Assembly: GCF_988243305.1 (NCBI RefSeq)
Contig: NZ_OZ547136.1
Length of the DNA: 64,000 nucleotides
Strand: one strand, 5' to 3'
The notes under the pieces are model-generated. The model had not been told where the DNA came from. It saw nothing but the letters and a program-made list of their open reading frames with translations, and searched no databases. Within the stretch, counting starts at the first letter, position 1. Every line of letters begins with the position of its first letter. Below are positions 434-9,189 of the stretch, piece by piece. The translations under genes were made by a program, and so were the position numbers.

Positions 434-526
434 TATTACCGGGTCTCACGGTCAGTGATGAACGTGATGTTGCCAGCTCCCGACCTTTACTCCCTCTCAT
501 TTATTCACATTACAAGGATTTCATAC

Positions 527-1000
527 ATGAAAACATTGTCTCAGAACACCACCTCTTCGGCCTGTGCACCGGAGACTGGCCTGCAACAACTGGTTGCCAC
601 CATAGTCCCTGATGAACAGCGCATCAGCTTCTGGCCGCAGCATTTTGGCCTCATTCCACAGTGGGTGACCCTGGAGCCCCGTGTCTTCGGCTGGATGGAC
701 CGTCTGTGCGAAAACTACTGCGGTGGTATCTGGAATCTGTACACCCTGAACAACGGCGGGGCATTTATGGCCCCTGAACCGGATGACTATGATGACGAAA
801 CATGGGTACTGTTCAATGCCATGAACGGTAACCGCGCTGAAATGAGCCCGGAAGCCGCCGGCATTGCCGCCTGTCTGATGACGTACAGTCATCACGCCTG
901 CCGTACGGAGTGTTATGCCATGACGGTTCATTATTACCGTCTGCGGGATTACGCCCTGCAGCATCCGGAATGCAGCGCCATTATGCGCATTATTGACTGA
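527..1000 (+). CDS. Antirestriction protein, KlcA/ArdB family (YfjX/YafX-like)
   Basis: Translation MKTLSQNTTSSACAPETGLQQLVATIVPDEQRISFWPQHFG... matches my recollection of the K-12 prophage antirestriction paralogs; AAGGA RBS 9 nt upstream of ATG 527. Confidence 0.85.
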   Translation: MKTLSQNTTSSACAPETGLQQLVATIVPDEQRISFWPQHFGLIPQWVTLEPRVFGWMDRLCENYCGGIWNLYTLNNGGAFMAPEPDDYDDETWVLFNAMNGNRAEMSPEAAGIAACLMTYSHHACRTECYAMTVHYYRLRDYALQHPECSAIMRIID

Positions 1001-1015
1001 AAGGGGGCAGGAACA

Positions 1016-1492
1016 ATGCAACAGCTTTCCTTTCTGCCCGGAGAGATGACGCCCGGCGAGCGCAGTCTCATTCTGCGGGCCCTGAAAACCCTGGACCGCC
1101 ATCTTCATGAACCCGGCGTGGCCTTCACCTCCACCCGTGCGGCACGGGAATGGCTGATTCTGAACATGGCGGGACTGGAGCGTGAAGAGTTCCGGGTGCT
1201 GTATCTGAATAACCAGAATCAGCTGATTGCCGGTGAAACCCTCTTCACCGGCACCATCAACCGCACGGAAGTCCATCCCCGGGAAGTGATTAAACGCGCC
1301 CTGTATCACAATGCCGCAGCCGTGGTGCTGGCACACAATCACCCGTCCGGTGAAGTCACCCCCAGTAAGGCAGACCGCCTTATCACGGAACGTCTGGTAC
1401 AGGCACTGGGCCTGGTGGATATCCGGGTGCCGGACCATCTGATAGTCGGTGGCAGCCAGGTTTTCTCCTTTGCCGAACATGGTCTGCTTTAA
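1016..1492 (+). CDS. RadC-like JAB/MPN domain protein (YeeS/YkfG/YfjY family)
   Basis: 158-aa ORF with intact JAMM-type motif HNHPSGEVTPSKAD; conserved position after antirestriction gene. Confidence 0.9.
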   Translation: MQQLSFLPGEMTPGERSLILRALKTLDRHLHEPGVAFTSTRAAREWLILNMAGLEREEFRVLYLNNQNQLIAGETLFTGTINRTEVHPREVIKRALYHNAAAVVLAHNHPSGEVTPSKADRLITERLVQALGLVDIRVPDHLIVGGSQVFSFAEHGLL

Positions 1493-1554: not shown

Positions 1555-1776
1555 ATGAAAATCATCACCCGTGGTGAAGCCATGCGTATTCACCAACAGC
1601 ATCCTGCATCCCGTCTTTTTCCGTTCTGTACCGGCAAATACCGCTGGCACGGCAGCACTGAAACGTATACCGGTCGTGAAGTGCAGGATATTCCCGGTGT
1701 GCTGGCCGTGTTTGCTGAACGCCGTAAGGACAGTTTTGGCCCGTATGTCCGGCTGATGAGCGTCACTCTGAACTGA
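1555..1776 (+). CDS. DUF987 protein (YeeT/YkfH/YpjJ-like)
   Basis: 73-aa translation MKIITRGEAMRIHQQHP...YVRLMSVTLN is near-identical to K-12 YeeT as I recall it. Confidence 0.85.
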   Translation: MKIITRGEAMRIHQQHPASRLFPFCTGKYRWHGSTETYTGREVQDIPGVLAVFAERRKDSFGPYVRLMSVTLN

Positions 1777-1794: not shown

Positions 1795-2439
1795 ATGAGC
1801 AGAATTATCACCACCACCGTGTATACACTGCATGAGCTATCCTCCACCGCACAGGAAAAAGCCCGCGACTGGTACCGTCAGCATCATGCTGACAGCAACT
1901 GGTATGAAAACGTGTATGAGGACTTCAGGGAGGTCTGTGGCATTTTCGGAATTGACCTCCGCCAGCGCGTTTTCCGGCTCAGCAACGGCAGGTTTATGGA
2001 AGAGCCGTGCATCTGGTTCAGCGGATTCTGCAGTCAGGGGGACGGAGCCTGTTTTGAAGGGCGCTGGCACTGGCAGCCAGCGACACCCCGGAAAATCAGG
2101 GAATATGCCCCTCAGGACCGTGAGCTTCATCGTATCGCGGATGCCCTGCAGGCGGTACAGAAGCGTAACTTCTGGCAGTTACAGGCTGAAATCAGTCACC
2201 GGGGACGTTACTGCCATCCGTACAGCATGGATATCACCGTCACCCGGAACAGTCCGACTGGTCAGGCACTGACAGCCGATGCGGAAGCCGCTGTCAGCGA
2301 AGCCCTGCGCGACCTGGCCTTCTGGCTGTACCGCCAGCTGGAAAACGAGTACGACTGGCTGACCTCAGACGCCGCTGTAGATGAGGCCATTCACATCAAT
2401 GCATATACCTTCACCGAAGCCGGTCTCCACGCCGGCTGA
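1795..2439 (+). CDS. Hypothetical protein (214 aa), unknown function, inserted between DUF987 gene and cbeA
   Basis: Uninterrupted 645-nt ORF; ATG preceded by AAGGG; Trp/Cys-rich; no family recognised. The K-12 yeeT-cbeA type modules have no gene here. Confidence 0.55.
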   Translation: MSRIITTTVYTLHELSSTAQEKARDWYRQHHADSNWYENVYEDFREVCGIFGIDLRQRVFRLSNGRFMEEPCIWFSGFCSQGDGACFEGRWHWQPATPRKIREYAPQDRELHRIADALQAVQKRNFWQLQAEISHRGRYCHPYSMDITVTRNSPTGQALTADAEAAVSEALRDLAFWLYRQLENEYDWLTSDAAVDEAIHINAYTFTEAGLHAG

Positions 2440-2488: not shown

Positions 2489-2866
2489 GTGTCAGACACA
2501 CTCCCCGGGACAACACTTCCCGACGACAATCACGACCGCCCCTGGTGGGGGCTGCCCTGCACCGTGACGCCCTGTTTCGGGGCACGTCTGGTGCAGGAGG
2601 GTAACCGGTTGCATTACCTTGCAGACCGCACCGGTATCAGAGGCCGGTTCAGCAATGCGGATGCATACCATCTGGACCAGGCTTTTCCACTGCTGATGAA
2701 ACAACTGGAACTCATGCTCACCAGCGGTGAACTGAATCCCCGCCATCAGCATACCGTCACGCTGTATGCGAAAGGGCTGACCTGCGAAGCTGATACCCTT
2801 GGCAGTTGTGGTTACGTTTATCTGGCTGTTTATCCGACACCGGCAGCACCCGCAATCACCGTATAA
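2489..2866 (+). CDS. cbeA: Type IV TA antitoxin CbeA (YeeU) homolog
   Basis: GTG start with GTGAGGA RBS; translation VSDTLPGTTLPDDNHDRPWWGLPCTVTPCFGARLVQEGNRLHYLADR... matches K-12 CbeA. Confidence 0.9.
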   Translation: MSDTLPGTTLPDDNHDRPWWGLPCTVTPCFGARLVQEGNRLHYLADRTGIRGRFSNADAYHLDQAFPLLMKQLELMLTSGELNPRHQHTVTLYAKGLTCEADTLGSCGYVYLAVYPTPAAPAITV

Positions 2867-2912
2867 CCCCGGATATCTCCCCTTTATCACCACCTGTTAC
2901 AGAGAACTTAAG

Positions 2913-3287
2913 ATGAATACATTACCCGACACTCACGTACGGGAGGCATCGGGCTGCCCGTCTCCCGTCACCATCTGGCAGACACTGCTCACCCGACTGC
3001 TGGACCAGCACTACGGCCTCACGCTGAATGACACACCGTTCGCTGATGAACGTGTGATTGAGCAGCATATTGAGGCAGGTATTTCACTGTGTGATGCGGT
3101 GAACTTTCTCGTGGAAAAATACGCGCTGGTGCGTACCGACCAGCCGGGATTCAGCGCCTGTACCCGCTCTCAGTTAATAAACAGCATCGATATCCTCCGG
3201 GCTCGCAGGGCGACCGGCCTGATGACCCGCGACAATTACAGAACGGTAAATAACATAACCCTGGGTAAGCATCCGGAGGCGAAATGA
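2913..3287 (+). CDS. cbtA: Type IV TA toxin CbtA (YeeV) homolog, cytoskeleton-targeting
   Basis: 124-aa translation; C-terminal ~100 aa (LLDQHYGLTLNDTPFADERVIEQHIEAGISLCDAVNFLVEKYALVR...) matches K-12 CbtA; N-terminus divergent. Confidence 0.9.
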   Translation: MNTLPDTHVREASGCPSPVTIWQTLLTRLLDQHYGLTLNDTPFADERVIEQHIEAGISLCDAVNFLVEKYALVRTDQPGFSACTRSQLINSIDILRARRATGLMTRDNYRTVNNITLGKHPEAK

Positions 3288-3775
3288 TGAAACTGGCCCT
3301 GACGCTGGAAGCCGACAGCGTTAACGTACAGGCACTGAACATGGGGCGCATTGTCGTTGACGTCGATGGTATTGAGCTTGCTGAACTGATTAACGTGGTC
3401 TGCGATAACGGTCACTCCCTTCGTGTTGTTGATGAATCTGACCGAGCCTCAACAGACTGCACGCCACCATTTGCTGCCCTGACCGGCATACGCTGCAGTA
3501 CCGCGCATATCACGGCAAAAGACAACGCCTGGCTGTACTCGCTGTCGCATCAGACGAATGACACCGGCGAATCAGAATGGATTCATTTTACAGGCAGCGG
3601 ATATCTGTTACGTACCGATGCGTGGTCATACCCGGTTCTGCGGCTTAAACGCCTGGGCCTGTCAAAAACGTTCCGCCGCCTGGTTGTCACACTCATCCGA
3701 CGTTATGGCGTCAGTCTCATTCATCTGGATGCCAGCGCTGAATGCCTGCCGGGTTTACCCACTTTCGACTGGTAA
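3284..3775 (+). CDS. DUF5983 protein (YeeW-like), overlaps cbtA stop
   Basis: ATG at 3284 overlaps cbtA stop (ATGATGA); 163-aa ORF in the conserved position after cbtA. Confidence 0.75.
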   Translation: MMKLALTLEADSVNVQALNMGRIVVDVDGIELAELINVVCDNGHSLRVVDESDRASTDCTPPFAALTGIRCSTAHITAKDNAWLYSLSHQTNDTGESEWIHFTGSGYLLRTDAWSYPVLRLKRLGLSKTFRRLVVTLIRRYGVSLIHLDASAECLPGLPTFDW

Positions 3776-3777
3776 CC

Positions 3778-3984
3778 ATGAACAACATGAAATCATTAAC
3801 CACGGAAACCGCACTGGATATTCTGATTGCGTGGCTGCAGGACAATATCGACTGCGAATCGGGAATTATCTTTGACAACGATGAGGATAAAACAGATTCG
3901 GCAGCACTGTTGCCCTGTATCGAACAGGCCAGGGAGGGTATCCGTACCCTGTGCCAACTGCAGCTTCTGCACCAGAACCGATGA
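3778..3984 (+). CDS. Small acidic hypothetical protein (68 aa), possibly DUF957-like
   Basis: ATG 2 nt after the previous stop; acidic DNDEDK stretch; family assignment from memory only. Confidence 0.5.
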   Translation: MNNMKSLTTETALDILIAWLQDNIDCESGIIFDNDEDKTDSAALLPCIEQAREGIRTLCQLQLLHQNR

Positions 3985-4073
3985 GTCTTACTCATTCACT
4001 CACCAGACTTCATTCCAATGACGTCAGCCTGAACAGGGCTGGCGTTTTCGTTTATAAACCAAAAGGAAAAACG

Positions 4074-4919
4074 ATGATGTCAGATATCACAATCTCCCGC
4101 CTGGAAGTGGTCAACGGACATACGGACATTATCTGCTCCACCTCAGTCAGCCACATTCTGGCTGTGCGAAAGACTACACTGCTGCAAATCGACACACTTA
4201 TCCGGCAACTGACTGAAATATCAGCAATGACAGAAAGTATTGGCGGTAAAACCGCACTGGACTGGGCCATGAAACAGGATTTTCGCTGCGGCTGCTGGCT
4301 CATGGATAAACCTGATACAGCAATGAAAGCTATCACCCGCAATCTCGATCGCGAAATCTGGCGTGACCTGATGCAATGCTCCGGGATGCTTTCCTTAATG
4401 GATGCACAGGCCCGTGATACATGGTACCGATCACTGGAGTACGATAATTTTCCGGAAATCAGTGAAGAGAATATTCTGAGTACGTTTGAGCAGCTACACC
4501 AGAATAAGGATGAAGTGTTTGAGCGAGGAGTGATCAACCTCTTCAGAGGGTTGAGCTGGAATTACAAAACCAATTGCCCCTGTAAATTTGGCAATAAAAT
4601 TATCGTCAACAATCTGGTGAGGTGGGACCGGTGGGGATTGCATCTTATCACCGGGCAACAGGCAGATAGACTTGCCGACCTGGAAAGAATGCTGCATCTG
4701 TTCAGCGGCAAACCGATCCCCGACAACAGGGAAAACATAACTATTCATCTGGACGAACATATCCGGTCTCTTCAGGGAAAAGAATGCTATGAAGATGAGA
4801 TGTTCATTATTAAATACTTTAAGAAGGGCTCTGCGCACATCACGTTCAGGAAGCCAGAACTGGTTGACAGACTGAATGATATTATCGCAAAACACTATCC
4901 TGATATGCTGGCAGTATAG
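4074..4919 (+). CDS. Hypothetical protein (281 aa), island cargo next to serX; possibly DUF4942-like
   Basis: AAGGAAAA RBS before ATG 4074; long ORF with lower GC than core; no catalytic motif recognised. Confidence 0.6.
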   Translation: MMSDITISRLEVVNGHTDIICSTSVSHILAVRKTTLLQIDTLIRQLTEISAMTESIGGKTALDWAMKQDFRCGCWLMDKPDTAMKAITRNLDREIWRDLMQCSGMLSLMDAQARDTWYRSLEYDNFPEISEENILSTFEQLHQNKDEVFERGVINLFRGLSWNYKTNCPCKFGNKIIVNNLVRWDRWGLHLITGQQADRLADLERMLHLFSGKPIPDNRENITIHLDEHIRSLQGKECYEDEMFIIKYFKKGSAHITFRKPELVDRLNDIIAKHYPDMLAV

Positions 4920-5026
4920 CTTTGCCAGTATGCTCAAAGATCGGAAATTGTCCGATAAGATATGATCGTGGGGCATATAAACCGGTTTCAGATGGCATAC
5001 CCGGTGGCATACTGTCTGGAAGGATA

Positions 5027-5060
5027 AATAAAAAAGCGCATGTTAAACAATAACATGCGC
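5027..5060 (-). terminator. Rho-independent terminator of serX
   Basis: Perfect 10-bp inverted repeat GCGCATGTTA/TAACATGCGC with 5-nt loop, followed on the minus strand by a T-tract, just downstream of the tRNA 3' end. Confidence 0.7.
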
Positions 5061-5068
5061 TTGTAATC

Positions 5069-5156
5069 TGGCGGTGAGGGGGGGATTCGAACCCCCGATA
5101 CGTTGCCGTATACACACTTTCCAGGCGTGCTCCTTCAGCCACTCGGACACCTCACC
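5069..5156 (-). tRNA. serX: tRNA-Ser (GGA), serX
   Basis: Reverse complement reads GGTGAGGTGTCCGAGTGGCTGAAGGAGCACGCCTGGAAAGTGTGTATACGGCAACGTATCGGGGGTTCGAATCCCCCCCTCACCGCCA: 88 nt, long variable arm, CCA end. Confidence 0.95.
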
Positions 5157-5350
5157 AAATTGTTGTTCCTGTCTTGCTGGAACGGGCGCTAATTTAGGGA
5201 AATCATGACCTGAGGTCAACAAACTTTTTTAAAAAATCGCGCGTTTATTCAAACTTCAATCAATATGCAGTTTTAATAAGCGAAATCTGCTTTTTTTGCC
5301 ACCGACCACGGATTTGTTATGCTGGTGGCTTTTGTAGATCATAACGATAA

Positions 5351-6382: not shown

Positions 6383-7120
6383 ATGTATCCCGTCGACCTT
6401 CATATGCATACCGTTGCCAGCACGCATGCATATAGCACATTGAGTGATTACATTGCCCAGGCCAAACAAAAGGGCATTAAACTTTTTGCGATCACCGATC
6501 ATGGCCCGGATATGGAAGATGCGCCGCATCACTGGCACTTCATTAACATGCGTATCTGGCCGCGAGTGGTTGATGGGGTTGGGATCCTGCGCGGCATCGA
6601 AGCTAACATTAAAAATGTTGACGGTGAAATTGACTGCAGTGGCAAAATGTTTGATTCGCTGGATCTGATTATTGCCGGTTTTCATGAGCCGGTGTTTGCG
6701 CCGCATGACAAAGCGACCAATACGCAAGCGATGATCGCCACTATCGCCAGCGGCAATGTGCATATAATAAGCCATCCCGGAAATCCGAAATATGAAATAG
6801 ATGTTAAAGCCGTTGCTGAAGCAGCTGCGAAACATCAGGTGGCGCTGGAAATCAATAATTCCTCATTTTTACACTCACGTAAGGGCAGTGAAGACAATTG
6901 TCGTGCGGTAGCCGCAGCGGTACGTGACGCTGGAGGTTGGGTGGCATTAGGCTCGGATTCTCACACCGCGTTTACCATGGGTGAATTTGAAGAGTGTCTT
7001 AAAATCCTCGACGCGGTAGATTTTCCGCCAGAGCGCATTTTGAATGTTTCTCCGCGCCGCTTACTGAACTTCCTTGAATCTCGCGGTATGGCACCGATTG
7101 CGGAATTTGCAGACCTTTAA
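6383..7120 (+). CDS. ycdX: PHP-domain phosphatase YcdX
   Basis: 245 aa; N-terminal DLHMHT metal-binding motif. Confidence 0.93.
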
Positions 7121-7799: not shown

Positions 7800-8291
7800 A
7801 TGAACATACTTCTCTCTATTGCAATCACAACAGGCATTCTCTCCGGTATCTGGGGATGGGTGGCTGTTTCCCTGGGCTTACTAAGCTGGGCGGGCTTCCT
7901 GGGCTGTACGGCCTACTTTGCCTGCCCGCAAGGTGGGCTGAAAGGGCTGGCGATCTCCGCTGCAACCCTGCTTAGTGGCGTGGTGTGGGCGATGGTCATT
8001 ATTTACGGTAGTGCACTGGCACCACATCTGGAAATTCTCGGTTATGTCATAACCGGTATTGTCGCGTTTCTGATGTGTATTCAGGCCAAACAGCTGCTGC
8101 TTTCATTTGTTCCGGGAACGTTTATAGGCGCATGCGCGACGTTTGCCGGGCAGGGTGACTGGAAACTGGTGTTACCTTCGCTGGGGCTCGGGTTGATATT
8201 TGGTTACGCAATGAAAAACAGCGGCCTGTGGCTGGCGGCGCGTAGTACGAAGACCGCTCACCGTGAGCAGCAAATCAAAAATAAAGCGTGA
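7800..8291 (+). CDS. ycdZ: Inner membrane protein YcdZ (DUF1097)
   Basis: Hydrophobic 163-aa protein from MNILLSIAITTG; ORF extends upstream but K-12-length start chosen. Confidence 0.85.
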   Translation: MNILLSIAITTGILSGIWGWVAVSLGLLSWAGFLGCTAYFACPQGGLKGLAISAATLLSGVVWAMVIIYGSALAPHLEILGYVITGIVAFLMCIQAKQLLLSFVPGTFIGACATFAGQGDWKLVLPSLGLGLIFGYAMKNSGLWLAARSTKTAHREQQIKNKA

Positions 8292-8355
8292 GGGGCACTC
8301 ACGCTTTCGCTTAAACAGTAAAATGCCGGATTATTAATTCCGGCATTTTTATCTA

Positions 8356-9189
8356 TCAGGATTCCGGTGGAACCGACATATGGCGGTATTTCACTAGAAT
8401 GTCATTCTGCCGTTCTGCTTTATTTTGCAAATCCCAAAGACCGCGGTCGATACCATCATTAATCAGGAAAATGACGCCTGTTTCGATAGCCGACATTAGG
8501 CACAGCATAACGGGTTCGTTCGAGGTGTAACCTACTTCCCCTTCCAGCAAGCGCTGGTAGTCAATAAAGCGGAAAACCCCGGCCTGAACTTCATAGGAAA
8601 GTATCGTCTTACTAGTGTTCACCGAGGAGAGGATCTCGCCGGTACTCACATTGACGACGCGCAGGTTCACGGCAATCTGATCAAGCTGGTATTGCGTGTC
8701 GGCACCGATCCCAAAATATCTTGCCCCAACCCCGCCCGATTTGACGTTGCTTTCATAACCGATAATTGAACCTTCAACCATGATATTTGCCGCCGTTAAA
8801 GACTGCAGCGGGATTCGGTTATTAATGGCAACCGTACCGTTTTCTTGTGCCGCACGAATAATCTTGCGCTCGTTAAGCAGGTTTTGTAAGCCCTGGCGCT
8901 CCAGCGGTATAAACCAGCGAGAATCTTTCAATGCCGTGACCAGCATTGCCGTGGCGCTTTGCGGAACAGCAGTGGAGAAGTTACTTGCCGGGTAGGGTTT
9001 AAATTGCCCGGTTTCGTCCTGAATGTTGTATACCGAAACAAAGATCTTACCCGTCGGCGCTGGCAGATGGGTCAAATCTTTGTAGCTCTGAGCACGAGGC
9101 ATTAATGTCGGTCTGGCGGCTTCTTTAGGCGGGGCGGTTAAGCATCCGCTCAGTAACATGACGGCAACCAAAAGAAATAAGCGCTGCAT
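8356..9189 (-). CDS. csgG: Curli secretion channel lipoprotein CsgG
   Basis: 277 aa; lipobox LLSGC. Confidence 0.95.
   Translation of the reverse strand: MQRLFLLVAVMLLSGCLTAPPKEAARPTLMPRAQSYKDLTHLPAPTGKIFVSVYNIQDETGQFKPYPASNFSTAVPQSATAMLVTALKDSRWFIPLERQGLQNLLNERKIIRAAQENGTVAINNRIPLQSLTAANIMVEGSIIGYESNVKSGGVGARYFGIGADTQYQLDQIAVNLRVVNVSTGEILSSVNTSKTILSYEVQAGVFRFIDYQRLLEGEVGYTSNEPVMLCLMSAIETGVIFLINDGIDRGLWDLQNKAERQNDILVKYRHMSVPPES

Follow-up and report, generated by a model that had tools for sequence, protein, structure and literature searches.

The small acidic open reading frame ending at position 3984 of the window, a stretch of 64,000 nucleotides from contig NZ_OZ547136.1, is almost certainly a real protein-coding gene of the DUF957 family, and the evidence links it to the upstream DUF5983 gene more than to the downstream 281-aa gene. 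The best explanation, which we advance tentatively and with slightly less than even confidence, is a small interaction module that works with DUF5983 and is encoded by the last cistron of a cbeA–cbtA–DUF5983 operon. The gene lies in a CP4-type island at tRNA-Ser, with the order ArdB, RadC, DUF987, CbeA, CbtA, DUF5983, DUF957 and DUF4942, and ghrA, ycdX and csg genes are found beyond the tRNA. The features that matter for the argument are the following.

2489–3287, + strand: cbeA (2489–2866) and cbtA (2913–3287), a type IV toxin–antitoxin pair (Pfam).
3284–3775, + strand: DUF5983 gene (YeeW-like), with N-domain at 3284–3448 and C-domain at 3479–3772 (Pfam).
3751–3757, + strand: GGGTTTA, a −1 slippery heptamer of the canonical X XXY YYZ type, read in the DUF5983 frame (sequence comparison, 31 loci).
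3778–3786, + strand: allele-specific in-frame extension Met-Asn-Asn (comparison with other loci).
3787–3984, + strand: DUF957 gene, 65 aa and a TGA stop when read from the conserved start (RefSeq, start conservation, dN/dS, AlphaFold2).
4020–4056, + strand: intrinsic-terminator-like hairpin with an 11-bp stem at 4020–4046 and a 5-nt loop, followed by the T-run TTTTCGTTTAT (terminator scan).
4074–4919, + strand: DUF4942 gene, whose product has 281 aa if started at ATG 4074 and 280 aa if started at 4077 (RefSeq); no other island gene lies between it and tRNA-Ser (Pfam E=2.8e-70, RefSeq).
5069–5156, − strand: tRNA-Ser (GGA), the integration site and island boundary (ARAGORN, Rfam, RefSeq).

The cistrons upstream of DUF957 in its co-directional block include cbeA and cbtA (Pfam CbeA_antitoxin, E=2.2e-54; CbtA_toxin, E=1.6e-64). 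The start of DUF5983 overlaps the cbtA stop by 4 nt, and its product matches both DUF5983_N (E=1e-31) and the DUF5983 C-domain (E=2.7e-22). As the original prediction stated, a frame of 68 codons runs from ATG 3778–3780 to a TGA stop at 3982–3984, and its ATG lies 2 nt past the DUF5983 stop (TAA, 3773–3775). The product is acidic and carries DNDEDK, also as described (pI 4.24, net charge about −7.4). The tight packing ascribed to this frame holds on its 5′ side but not on its 3′ side, where the start of DUF4942 (4074/4077) is 89–92 nt away. Similarly, the frame does share its last 34 nt with a longer ORF listed from GTG 3951, but the 5′ extension of that ORF is an artefact of ORF listing; homologues share the start of DUF4942 at 4074/4077, which is preceded by an AAGGAA ribosome-binding site of its own. 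On the opposite strand, a 92-aa antisense ORF overlaps DUF957.

The ORF product is identical (100%) to RefSeq WP_000839257.1, "DUF957 domain-containing protein", and the 100% identical strain PSUO2 carries the RefSeq annotation of the ORF. The gene thus named is already known as a family, which we take to be legacy Pfam PF06117, and is ordinary in occurrence: there are 371 clusters of close relatives, many bearing the family name, the exact protein sequence is present on at least 1000 contigs, and DUF957 DNA is found in 4956 of 5426 complete E. coli genomes (about 91%), with a median of 3 copies. The Pfam-A copy that was searched returned no match to the protein even at E≤10, the family model being apparently missing from that copy, and a scan of NCBIfam profiles, which hold no DUF957 model, also gave 0 matches. 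Length, motif and position after a YeeW-like gene are the same in L0009 of the EDL933 LEE island, in orf55 of the Shigella SRL island and in Aec78 of an E. coli island, all of them DUF957 members. In the literature searched, DUF957 is named only in the gene tables of two papers, with no functional study.

Conservation among homologues identifies the frame as coding. Loss of the frame in related islands had been named in advance as an observation that would count against the gene; instead, the frame is kept in 31 loci, on islands or plasmids, that represent at least 10 genera. Length, start and motif persist from Escherichia to Yersinia, Edwardsiella, Serratia and Providencia. The median dN/dS over 81 pairs is 0.154, in a comparison whose synonymous sites are saturated, next to 0.152 for DUF5983, 0.152 for CbtA and 0.098 for DUF4942. 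That the frame is open by chance, or is what remains of a frameshifted gene, and yields no functional protein could be argued from the missing profile models in the Pfam copy and NCBIfam, from the many database entries that are frameshifted or chimeric fragments and from the overlapping antisense ORF. The low dN/dS at saturated synonymous sites and the conserved length, start and motif contradict this reading, as do a confident fold prediction from a 44-sequence alignment and the reuse of the domain in multi-domain proteins, and we reject a spurious ORF as virtually impossible.

The start codon used by RefSeq and kept in all relatives is ATG 3787, which yields 65 aa. At 3778–3786, other loci read ccAGGaacaacATG or ccAGAaacaacATG, in which AGG or AGA is part of an AGGA Shine-Dalgarno, and DUF957 relatives keep their own ATG together with a Shine-Dalgarno-like motif. 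In the present allele, a change of AGG to ATG at 3778 both made the new ATG and removed the AGGA Shine-Dalgarno of start 3787. The exact 22-mer around ATG 3778 occurs in 1 of 50 loci, that of the identical strain (L001). With the Shine-Dalgarno lost and an ATG placed 2 nt past the DUF5983 stop, translation of DUF957 in this allele is therefore probably coupled to that of DUF5983 by termination–reinitiation, which would add Met-Asn-Asn to the product.

The DUF957 product (~7.3 kDa) is acidic as a family trait (median pI 4.1, net charge −8). Its conserved core of ~65 aa reads WLxDN ... (I/L)(I/C)FDNDxDxTDS ... LLP, and W16, L17 and F29 never vary among the 44 diverse members aligned, while L10, D19, N20, D30 and S38 are at least 90% conserved. 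AlphaFold2 with this 44-sequence alignment predicts a two-helix hairpin (pLDDT 93.7, pTM 0.77) in which helices 6–22 and 38–63 are joined by an ordered acidic loop, 23–37. The conserved DxDxD-T-D-S loop lies between the two helices, and conserved residues W16, L17, D19, N20, F29, D30, N31, D32, T36, D37, S38 and P43 sit round the loop end of the hairpin. Fold searches with the model return generic helical hairpins and no specific structural relative, a PDB sequence search with the family profile returns designed helical bundles only (E≥0.19), and comparison with solved anti-defence proteins gives no fold match beyond generic hairpins. PADLOC and PHROG profile scans of the protein yield no matches, and the predicted fold is not a DNA-binding fold. 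Rather than an enzyme, DUF957 would be a small protein–protein interaction or oligomerisation module.

Natural fusions point to the partner of this module. DUF957 is fused to the DUF5983 N-domain in at least four lineages, through four different linkers. The fusions measure 118–122 aa in Serratia and Yersinia, with at least six copies in Serratia sp. DD3, and 140 aa in E. coli, where they occur on 15 contigs, complete genomes among them; the proteins P0148 and P0159 are further examples. The C-domain of DUF5983 is a separate gene elsewhere in the block in Serratia and mostly travels alone on plasmids. DUF957 always follows the DUF5983 N-domain, except in one replacement by DUF1643 and at truncated K-12-type island ends, and the spacer between DUF5983 and DUF957 measures 11 nt in this clade and 16–32 nt in other clades. 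DUF957 domains of IncHI and IncT plasmids and of phage-like contigs have no DUF5983_N nearby, and the module is therefore not DUF5983-dependent everywhere. DUF5983 is likely to be the functional partner of DUF957, and whether the two work together physically through the N-domain we judge to be an even question. In such an arrangement DUF957 would bind the DUF5983 N-domain, and the present island would encode as two polypeptides what is one functional unit. The AlphaFold2 model of natural fusion P0162, made with a paired alignment, is of low confidence (pLDDT 72, pTM 0.45), with a disordered linker, a poorly predicted N-domain and no confident docking of DUF957 onto DUF5983_N. A PDB search with DUF5983 found no match. 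The fusions could also reflect deletion of the C-domain and not a selected functional link. They nevertheless name a concrete partner, the DUF5983 N-domain, other than the one first proposed.

The sequence 3′ of DUF957 has the features of an operon end. The terminator-like hairpin, placed after the stop of DUF957 and ahead of the ribosome-binding site of DUF4942, has a free energy of −18.1 kcal/mol (z = −3.6). It is conserved across Enterobacterales, with compensatory changes in two of eight pairs; in Serratia, a hairpin that differs in sequence occupies this position. The terminator scan found no such site from cbtA to DUF957 apart from weak internal matches, no promoter-like site was found in the 3984–4074 spacer, and an Rfam scan of 3200–5300 detected the tRNA only. 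DUF957 is thus placed, with good probability, as the operon-terminal cistron; the cbeA–cbtA–DUF5983 transcription unit would end at the predicted hairpin, with DUF957 as its last member.

The original prediction had looked downstream instead, suggesting that DUF957 is a partner or antitoxin-like component of the 281-aa gene, DUF4942. The conservation of the pair across genomes that it called for is indeed seen within CP4-type islands: practically all of the island and plasmid copies examined have DUF5983, DUF957 and DUF4942 in this order, and nearly every island copy of DUF957 has DUF4942 next to it downstream. A small acidic protein upstream of a larger one is also the layout of many two-gene modules, and one locus (L024) has the pair without CbtA/CbeA, DUF957 being present there as a fusion to DUF5983_N. 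Against an antitoxin-like or regulatory partnership, the two genes are 89–92 nt apart with the conserved hairpin between them and so lack the operon adjacency of an antitoxin, and their co-occurrence is not obligate: full-length DUF4942 homologues are found on 4264 plasmids, usually without DUF957 and often beside relaxase genes with no DUF957 upstream (IncI and IncL/M examples), while DUF957 is on 1429 plasmids, mostly of other types, with no adjoining DUF4942. DUF957 stays intact in E. coli loci in which DUF4942 is deleted or truncated and also where it is a pseudogene, and in L013 (copy 2) DUF1643 replaces DUF957 before an intact DUF4942. One apparent E. coli case of DUF957 without DUF4942 (H23) was discarded, the DUF4942 there being merely truncated. 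Joins between the two are limited to three 164-aa products, in which the first ~42 DUF957 residues are spliced to the C-terminal part of DUF4942, resembling internal deletions; the recurrent fusions are to the upstream gene. The DUF957 model also has no DNA-binding fold, and hhalign detects no relation of the family to DUF4942 or to DUF987. DUF4942 itself matches phrog_6263, "DNA methyltransferase" (positions 81–284 of 548); a PDB search with it gave a weak lectin-repeat match only, and no literature on its toxicity was found. With the hairpin, the plasmid split, the intact DUF957 genes without DUF4942 and the upstream fusions all opposed to it, the antitoxin reading is weakly supported, and a partnership with DUF4942 is improbable. 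A third-component role in the CbtA/CbeA type IV module, with DUF957 and DUF5983 modulating toxin activity or antitoxin function, is to be doubted strongly. The genes share a co-directional block and probably one transcript, DUF5983 counts as a downstream "partner" of CbtA in a toxin–antitoxin census (PMC10790755), and an AntiFam family consistently lies beside cbtA/cbeA (Bioinform Adv 2026, vbag160). However, K-12 CP4-44, where CbtA/CbeA was characterised, has no DUF957 and a truncated DUF5983; L024 has the DUF5983_N–DUF957 fusion and DUF4942 with no CbtA/CbeA; and the IncHI, IncT and phage-like copies of DUF957 come without CbtA. Like DUF957, CbeA/YeeU is a small acidic protein of the same co-directional cluster and the same islands, but DUF957 is encoded downstream and not upstream of the toxin, is predicted to be a two-helix hairpin and is absent from the K-12 locus. 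The two proteins have no sequence relation: the CbeA_antitoxin profile gives no Pfam match to DUF957, and hhalign assigns a probability of 0.1% against the CbeA of the window. A CbeA-like antitoxin was rejected.

Another way to tie DUF957 to DUF5983 would be programmed −1 frameshifting at GGGTTTA, with DUF957 expressed mainly as the C-terminal part of a DUF5983–DUF957 fusion. The canonical heptamer is in frame 16 nt before the DUF5983 stop, and a −1 slip there would enter the frame of DUF957, uninterrupted over 3742–3984; moreover, this allele has lost the Shine-Dalgarno of start 3787, and a programmed-frameshift hypothesis has been published for a DUF5983-adjoining family, possibly not DUF957 (vbag160). 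Nevertheless, the heptamer is present in only 9 of 31 loci, all of the E. coli group with the 11-nt spacer, the offset between the DUF5983 and DUF957 frames varies between 1 and 2, and 12 of 31 loci have a stop, located where DUF5983 ends or beyond that point, which closes the DUF957 frame. The family retains its own ATG and Shine-Dalgarno-like motif, no stimulatory structure lies downstream (3758–3830 folds at −8.8 kcal/mol, z = 0.04 against shuffles), and DUF957 occurs far from any DUF5983. A conserved programmed frameshift is rejected, as neither the slippery site nor the frame relation is conserved among homologues, and expression by this route is very unlikely. The published hypothesis concerns AntiFam ANF00264, listed as a "potential false-positive AntiFam" that adjoins DUF5983 and cbtA/cbeA, with high AlphaFold confidence, a predicted homodimer and a seed matching a Serratia sp. 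protein (Bioinform Adv 2026, vbag160). DUF957 may be the family that AntiFam has filed as spurious, and the Serratia seed compares with the DUF5983_N–DUF957 fusions carried by Serratia sp. DD3. The published description would also fit another part of DUF5983, and the frameshift proposed for ANF00264 is not supported for DUF957. As DUF957 is real and under purifying selection, the matter counts if curated resources have dropped the family or call it spurious.

Beyond the islands, DUF957 homologues occur on 1429 plasmids, 1308 of them conjugative and mostly IncHI or IncT. These plasmid copies and the phage-like ones sit in one-directional arrays of small genes without DUF5983 or DUF4942; DUF3085, a neighbour on IncHI plasmids, is related to neither of those two families. 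One DUF957 domain is in a phage-like contig that has a lysozyme-like ORF about 2 kb further downstream; another is in a plasmid-like contig with gp32, RecA and Rep3. Plasmid leading regions (ArdA, ArdB/KlcA, PsiB, YubL, YdiA; Samuel et al. 2024, PMC11541004) share the island neighbours of DUF957, namely ArdB, RadC, DUF987/YubL-like, DUF4942/YdiA and DUF5983, and are likewise one-directional arrays of small genes. DUF4942 (YdiA) and DUF5983 rank among the top 100 leading-region families, their median positions from oriT being 1 and 2, and DUF957 is not listed in the leading-region tables examined (Nature 2024, PMC11541004). The unit would then belong to an "establishment" set shared with leading regions (ArdB/KlcA, RadC, DUF987/YubL, DUF4942/YdiA), and an establishment or anti-defence role of DUF957 is possible, if doubtful. 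Alternatively, DUF957 would be a stand-alone mobile-element factor, probably a dimer, that acts on a host target soon after entry, its neighbours being mere fellow passengers of an establishment block; it could act as an acidic decoy or mimic, or as a metal-binding loop protein, blocking a defence or host protein. The occurrence of the domain without DUF5983 or DUF4942 on plasmids and in phage-like and plasmid-like contigs is consistent with such a factor, as are its conserved acidic charge, the DxDxD-T-D-S loop between the helices, and an island block with ArdB antirestriction and homologues of leading-region families. The lack of PADLOC or PHROG matches and of any solved anti-defence relative beyond generic hairpins, the absence from the leading-region tables examined and the repeated DUF5983_N fusions, which it leaves unexplained, make the stand-alone factor rather unlikely. 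There is a further, speculative reading, to which we give little credence: DUF957 would be a module for docking or oligomerisation that is widespread in mobile elements and, together with DUF5983_N, makes up a two-part protein, split or fused. This protein would act soon after islands, IncHI/IncT plasmids and phages have entered a cell and could neutralise a host defence or factor via its conserved acidic DxDxD-T-D-S loop. If this is true, an uncharacterised accessory gene that ranks among the commonest of E. coli (about 91% of complete genomes, about 3 copies each) is part of a new establishment or anti-defence system.

The interaction module working with DUF5983, our preferred reading, belongs to a block of ArdB, RadC, DUF987, CbeA/CbtA, DUF5983, DUF957 and DUF4942 that mirrors plasmid leading regions, and what these very common genes do is relevant to the way in which islands and plasmids become established in a new host. 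In conjugative plasmids and phage-like contigs, the DUF957 domain is also found alone, in tandem copies (P0194, P0252) and joined to variable, unrelated C-terminal domains (P0149, P0171, P0174-6, P0191, P0200).

The small acidic ORF between DUF5983 and the 281-aa gene is a genuine gene of an already annotated family and is ordinary in occurrence. As originally predicted, an ATG at 3778 follows the DUF5983 stop (TAA) by 2 nt and opens 68 codons that end with TGA at 3982–3984, the product being small and acidic (pI 4.24, charge about −7.4); the overlap with a frame beginning at 3951 likewise holds, in that a mechanical ORF from GTG 3951 covers the last 34 nt. In the same frame RefSeq places the 65-aa WP_000839257.1, "DUF957 domain-containing protein", starting at ATG 3787; the family name comes from RefSeq, and neither the Pfam copy used nor NCBIfam contains a DUF957 model. 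Over its first 5 kb the window covers the terminal part of an Escherichia coli integrative island of CP4 type, and beyond the tRNA-Ser(GGA) at its insertion site lie ghrA, ycdX, ycdY, ycdZ and then the csg genes.

Features at the island end (window positions)
455–1000, plus strand: ORF of an antirestriction (ArdB-type) gene, with the Pfam domain inside it
1016–1492, plus strand: RadC-JAB (Pfam)
1555–1776, plus strand: DUF987 (Pfam)
1795–2439, plus strand: 214-aa protein without a Pfam family, strong phrog_5162 match (E=7e-37)
2489–2866, plus strand: CbeA antitoxin (Pfam)
2913–3287, plus strand: CbtA toxin (Pfam)
3284–3775, plus strand: DUF5983, N and C domains (Pfam)
3751–3757, plus strand: canonical −1 slippery heptamer GGGTTTA in the DUF5983 frame, −1 frame open into DUF957
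3787–3984, plus strand: DUF957 ORF between DUF5983 and DUF4942 (ATG 3778 alternative)
4020–4056, plus strand: intrinsic-terminator-like 11-bp hairpin (4020–4046), then a TTTTCGTTTAT T-run, directly 5′ of the DUF4942 ribosome-binding site
4074–4919, plus strand: DUF4942, the 281-aa gene (Pfam; RefSeq start 4077)
5069–5156, minus strand: tRNA-Ser(GGA), the island insertion site

Comparison with 30 other loci identifies ATG 3787 as the conserved start. Relatives carry AGG or AGA at position 3778, within ccAGGAacaacATG, the Shine-Dalgarno sequence that serves the 3787 start, and the exact sequence of the window allele occurs in one of 50 loci, that of the identical strain only; a single G-to-T change thus made ATG 3778 and abolished the usual ribosome-binding site. 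Reinitiation just beyond the DUF5983 stop is plausible for this allele.

The frame and its gene pair are conserved across genomes, as the original prediction would have it, with the same gene order throughout a one-genome-per-species scan. That scan placed DUF957 in E. albertii, Superficieibacter, Edwardsiella, Tenebrionibacter, Yersinia, Trabulsiella, Mixta, Citrobacter and others, with protein identity of 62–71%. Of 5426 complete E. coli genomes, 4956 carry DUF957 DNA, at a median of 3 and a maximum of 10 copies. Median dN/dS (Nei-Gojobori, with synonymous sites near saturation) is 0.154 for DUF957, 0.152 for both DUF5983 and CbtA, and 0.098 for DUF4942. A 92-aa antisense ORF (3717–3995, minus strand) spans the whole gene, and the dN/dS pattern agrees with the plus-strand DUF957 frame. 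Members named in the literature are L0009 (LEE island), orf55 (SRL island) and Aec78, and no function is given for these three.

A family profile run against the whole protein library drew just 147 representative clusters; fragments and frameshift chimeras account for many of these, and genuine distant members are also present. The conserved core reads WLxDN ... (I/L)(I/C)FDNDxDxTDS ... LLP, and acidity is conserved across the family (median pI 4.1, net charge −8). AlphaFold2, given a 44-sequence alignment, models two helices, 6–22 and 38–63, joined by an ordered acidic loop of 15 residues (pLDDT 93.7, pTM 0.77); a lone 65-residue helical hairpin as modeled would be expected to need a partner or oligomerisation. 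PADLOC and PHROGs scans of the protein gave no match.

Domain fusions offer the strongest clue to a partner. DUF957 forms the C-terminal part of fusions to the DUF5983 N-domain, a "Rosetta-stone" arrangement built with four different linkers: one in Serratia/Yersinia (118–122 aa, at least six copies in Serratia sp. DD3), one in E. coli (140 aa, on 15 contigs including complete genomes), and one each in proteins P0148 and P0159. Serratia sp. DD3 encodes the DUF5983 C-domain by itself, as a 106-aa gene occupying the usual DUF987 slot, and has the fusion after cbtA (6774–7094 and 8001–8357 of fetched loci L022/L023); on plasmids the C-domain mostly stands on its own. AlphaFold2 of the fusion P0162 gave no confident inter-domain arrangement (pLDDT 72, pTM 0.45), so physical docking of DUF957 on DUF5983_N stays putative. 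Other architectures have DUF957 as the N-terminal part before unrelated C-termini (P0149, P0171, P0174–6, P0185, P0191, P0200, P0201), with P0200 having a segment rich in cysteine plus an Ead/Ea22-like tail, or in tandem (P0194, P0252). The best-supported reading is a joint one, in which DUF957 would be a small acidic interaction module, encoded by the putative terminal cistron of a cbeA-cbtA-DUF5983 unit, that may work with the DUF5983 N-domain inside a leading-region-like establishment block. Basic CbtA/CbeA toxin–antitoxin function does not need DUF957, because at the K-12 CP4-44 locus, where the pair was characterised, cbeA and cbtA are accompanied by a 64-aa yeeW (N-domain only) and by neither DUF957 nor DUF4942.

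The original prediction cast DUF957 as a possible partner or antitoxin-like component of the 281-aa DUF4942 protein, a pairing for which synteny alone speaks. The order DUF5983, DUF957, DUF4942 is almost universal in CP4-type blocks and is kept without CbtA/CbeA in one fetched locus (L024). An antitoxin-type pair is disfavoured by the spacer hairpin, separate plasmid distributions, loss of DUF4942 beside an intact DUF957 and a gene swap. The 89–92 nt spacer carries the terminator-like hairpin (−18.1 kcal/mol, z = −3.6), whose motif CGCCAGCC...GGCTGGCG occurs in most Enterobacterales and is kept across genera, with compensatory changes at two of eight consensus pairs; in Serratia a hairpin of other sequence takes this position. 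A search of the spacer for promoter-like sites found none, and the hairpin's place before the DUF4942 ribosome-binding site would imply that DUF4942 expression relies on read-through or on a promoter that has escaped recognition. E. coli loci with DUF4942 truncated or lost retain an intact DUF957 or fusion frame, DUF4942 is a pseudogene on a Klebsiella plasmid, and in Trabulsiella odontotermitis a second block copy on one contig has a DUF1643 gene (162 aa; L013 7874–8362) instead of DUF957 between DUF5983 and an intact DUF4942. Three distinct metagenomic clusters (P0345–P0347, 164 aa) join the first ~42 DUF957 residues to the C-terminal part of DUF4942 and are probably internal deletions.

Full-length DUF4942 homologues occur on 4264 plasmids (3956 conjugative), adjoining the genes for mobilisation and relaxase in an IncI-type example, where the upstream gene is divergent, and preceded by the gene of an unrelated 59-aa protein in an IncL/M example. 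DUF957 homologues occur on 1429 (1308 conjugative), mostly IncHI or IncT, in long one-directional small-gene arrays with DUF3085, which is related to neither DUF5983 nor DUF4942, as the next gene. IncHI-type plasmids encode a 102-aa DUF957 protein with the DUF3085 gene 4 nt later, in long one-directional arrays of small hypothetical genes including hok (L029 8974–9778); the homologous stretch of Rts1 (IncT; L052 6001–6186) has no gene annotated in the PLSDB table. The whole island block is also present on large Klebsiella conjugative plasmids. The top-100 leading-region families (Samuel et al. 2024, PMC11541004, supplement 3) include DUF4942 (YdiA; families 24, 76) and DUF5983 (family 72), whereas DUF957 is absent from that list; counted from oriT, the median position is 1 for family 24 and 2 for family 72, and these families appear with KlcA/ArdB and YubL/YkfF (PMC11541004).

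Programmed frameshifting would offer another route to DUF957. AntiFam ANF00264, described in AntiFam as a spurious frameshifted phage protein, adjoins DUF5983 and cbtA/cbeA; it has a high-confidence fold and a predicted dimer, and programmed frameshifting was considered possible (Bioinform Adv vbag160, 2026). This entry may be the same family as DUF957. A family-wide frameshift is rejected, because just 9 of the 31 loci compared have the heptamer, the DUF5983–DUF957 frame offset varies between 1 and 2 from locus to locus, a stop at or after the DUF5983 end closes the DUF957 frame in 12 of the 31, and no RNA structure is predicted downstream of GGGTTTA. Within the window's allele group, a programmed −1 frameshift into DUF957 at this heptamer is at best a slim possibility.

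From 3284 to 4919 the window matches the chromosome of avian E. coli PSUO2 at 100% identity. A tblastn search of the fetched loci finds the 214-aa gene between DUF987 and cbeA only in near-identical PSUO2, so the usual block seems to have gained it by insertion. The window cbeA shares just 88.7% protein identity with the PSUO2 copy (L001 5209–5577), whereas identity in the flanking genes is 98.7–100%, a pattern suggestive of a recombination patch limited to the antitoxin gene.
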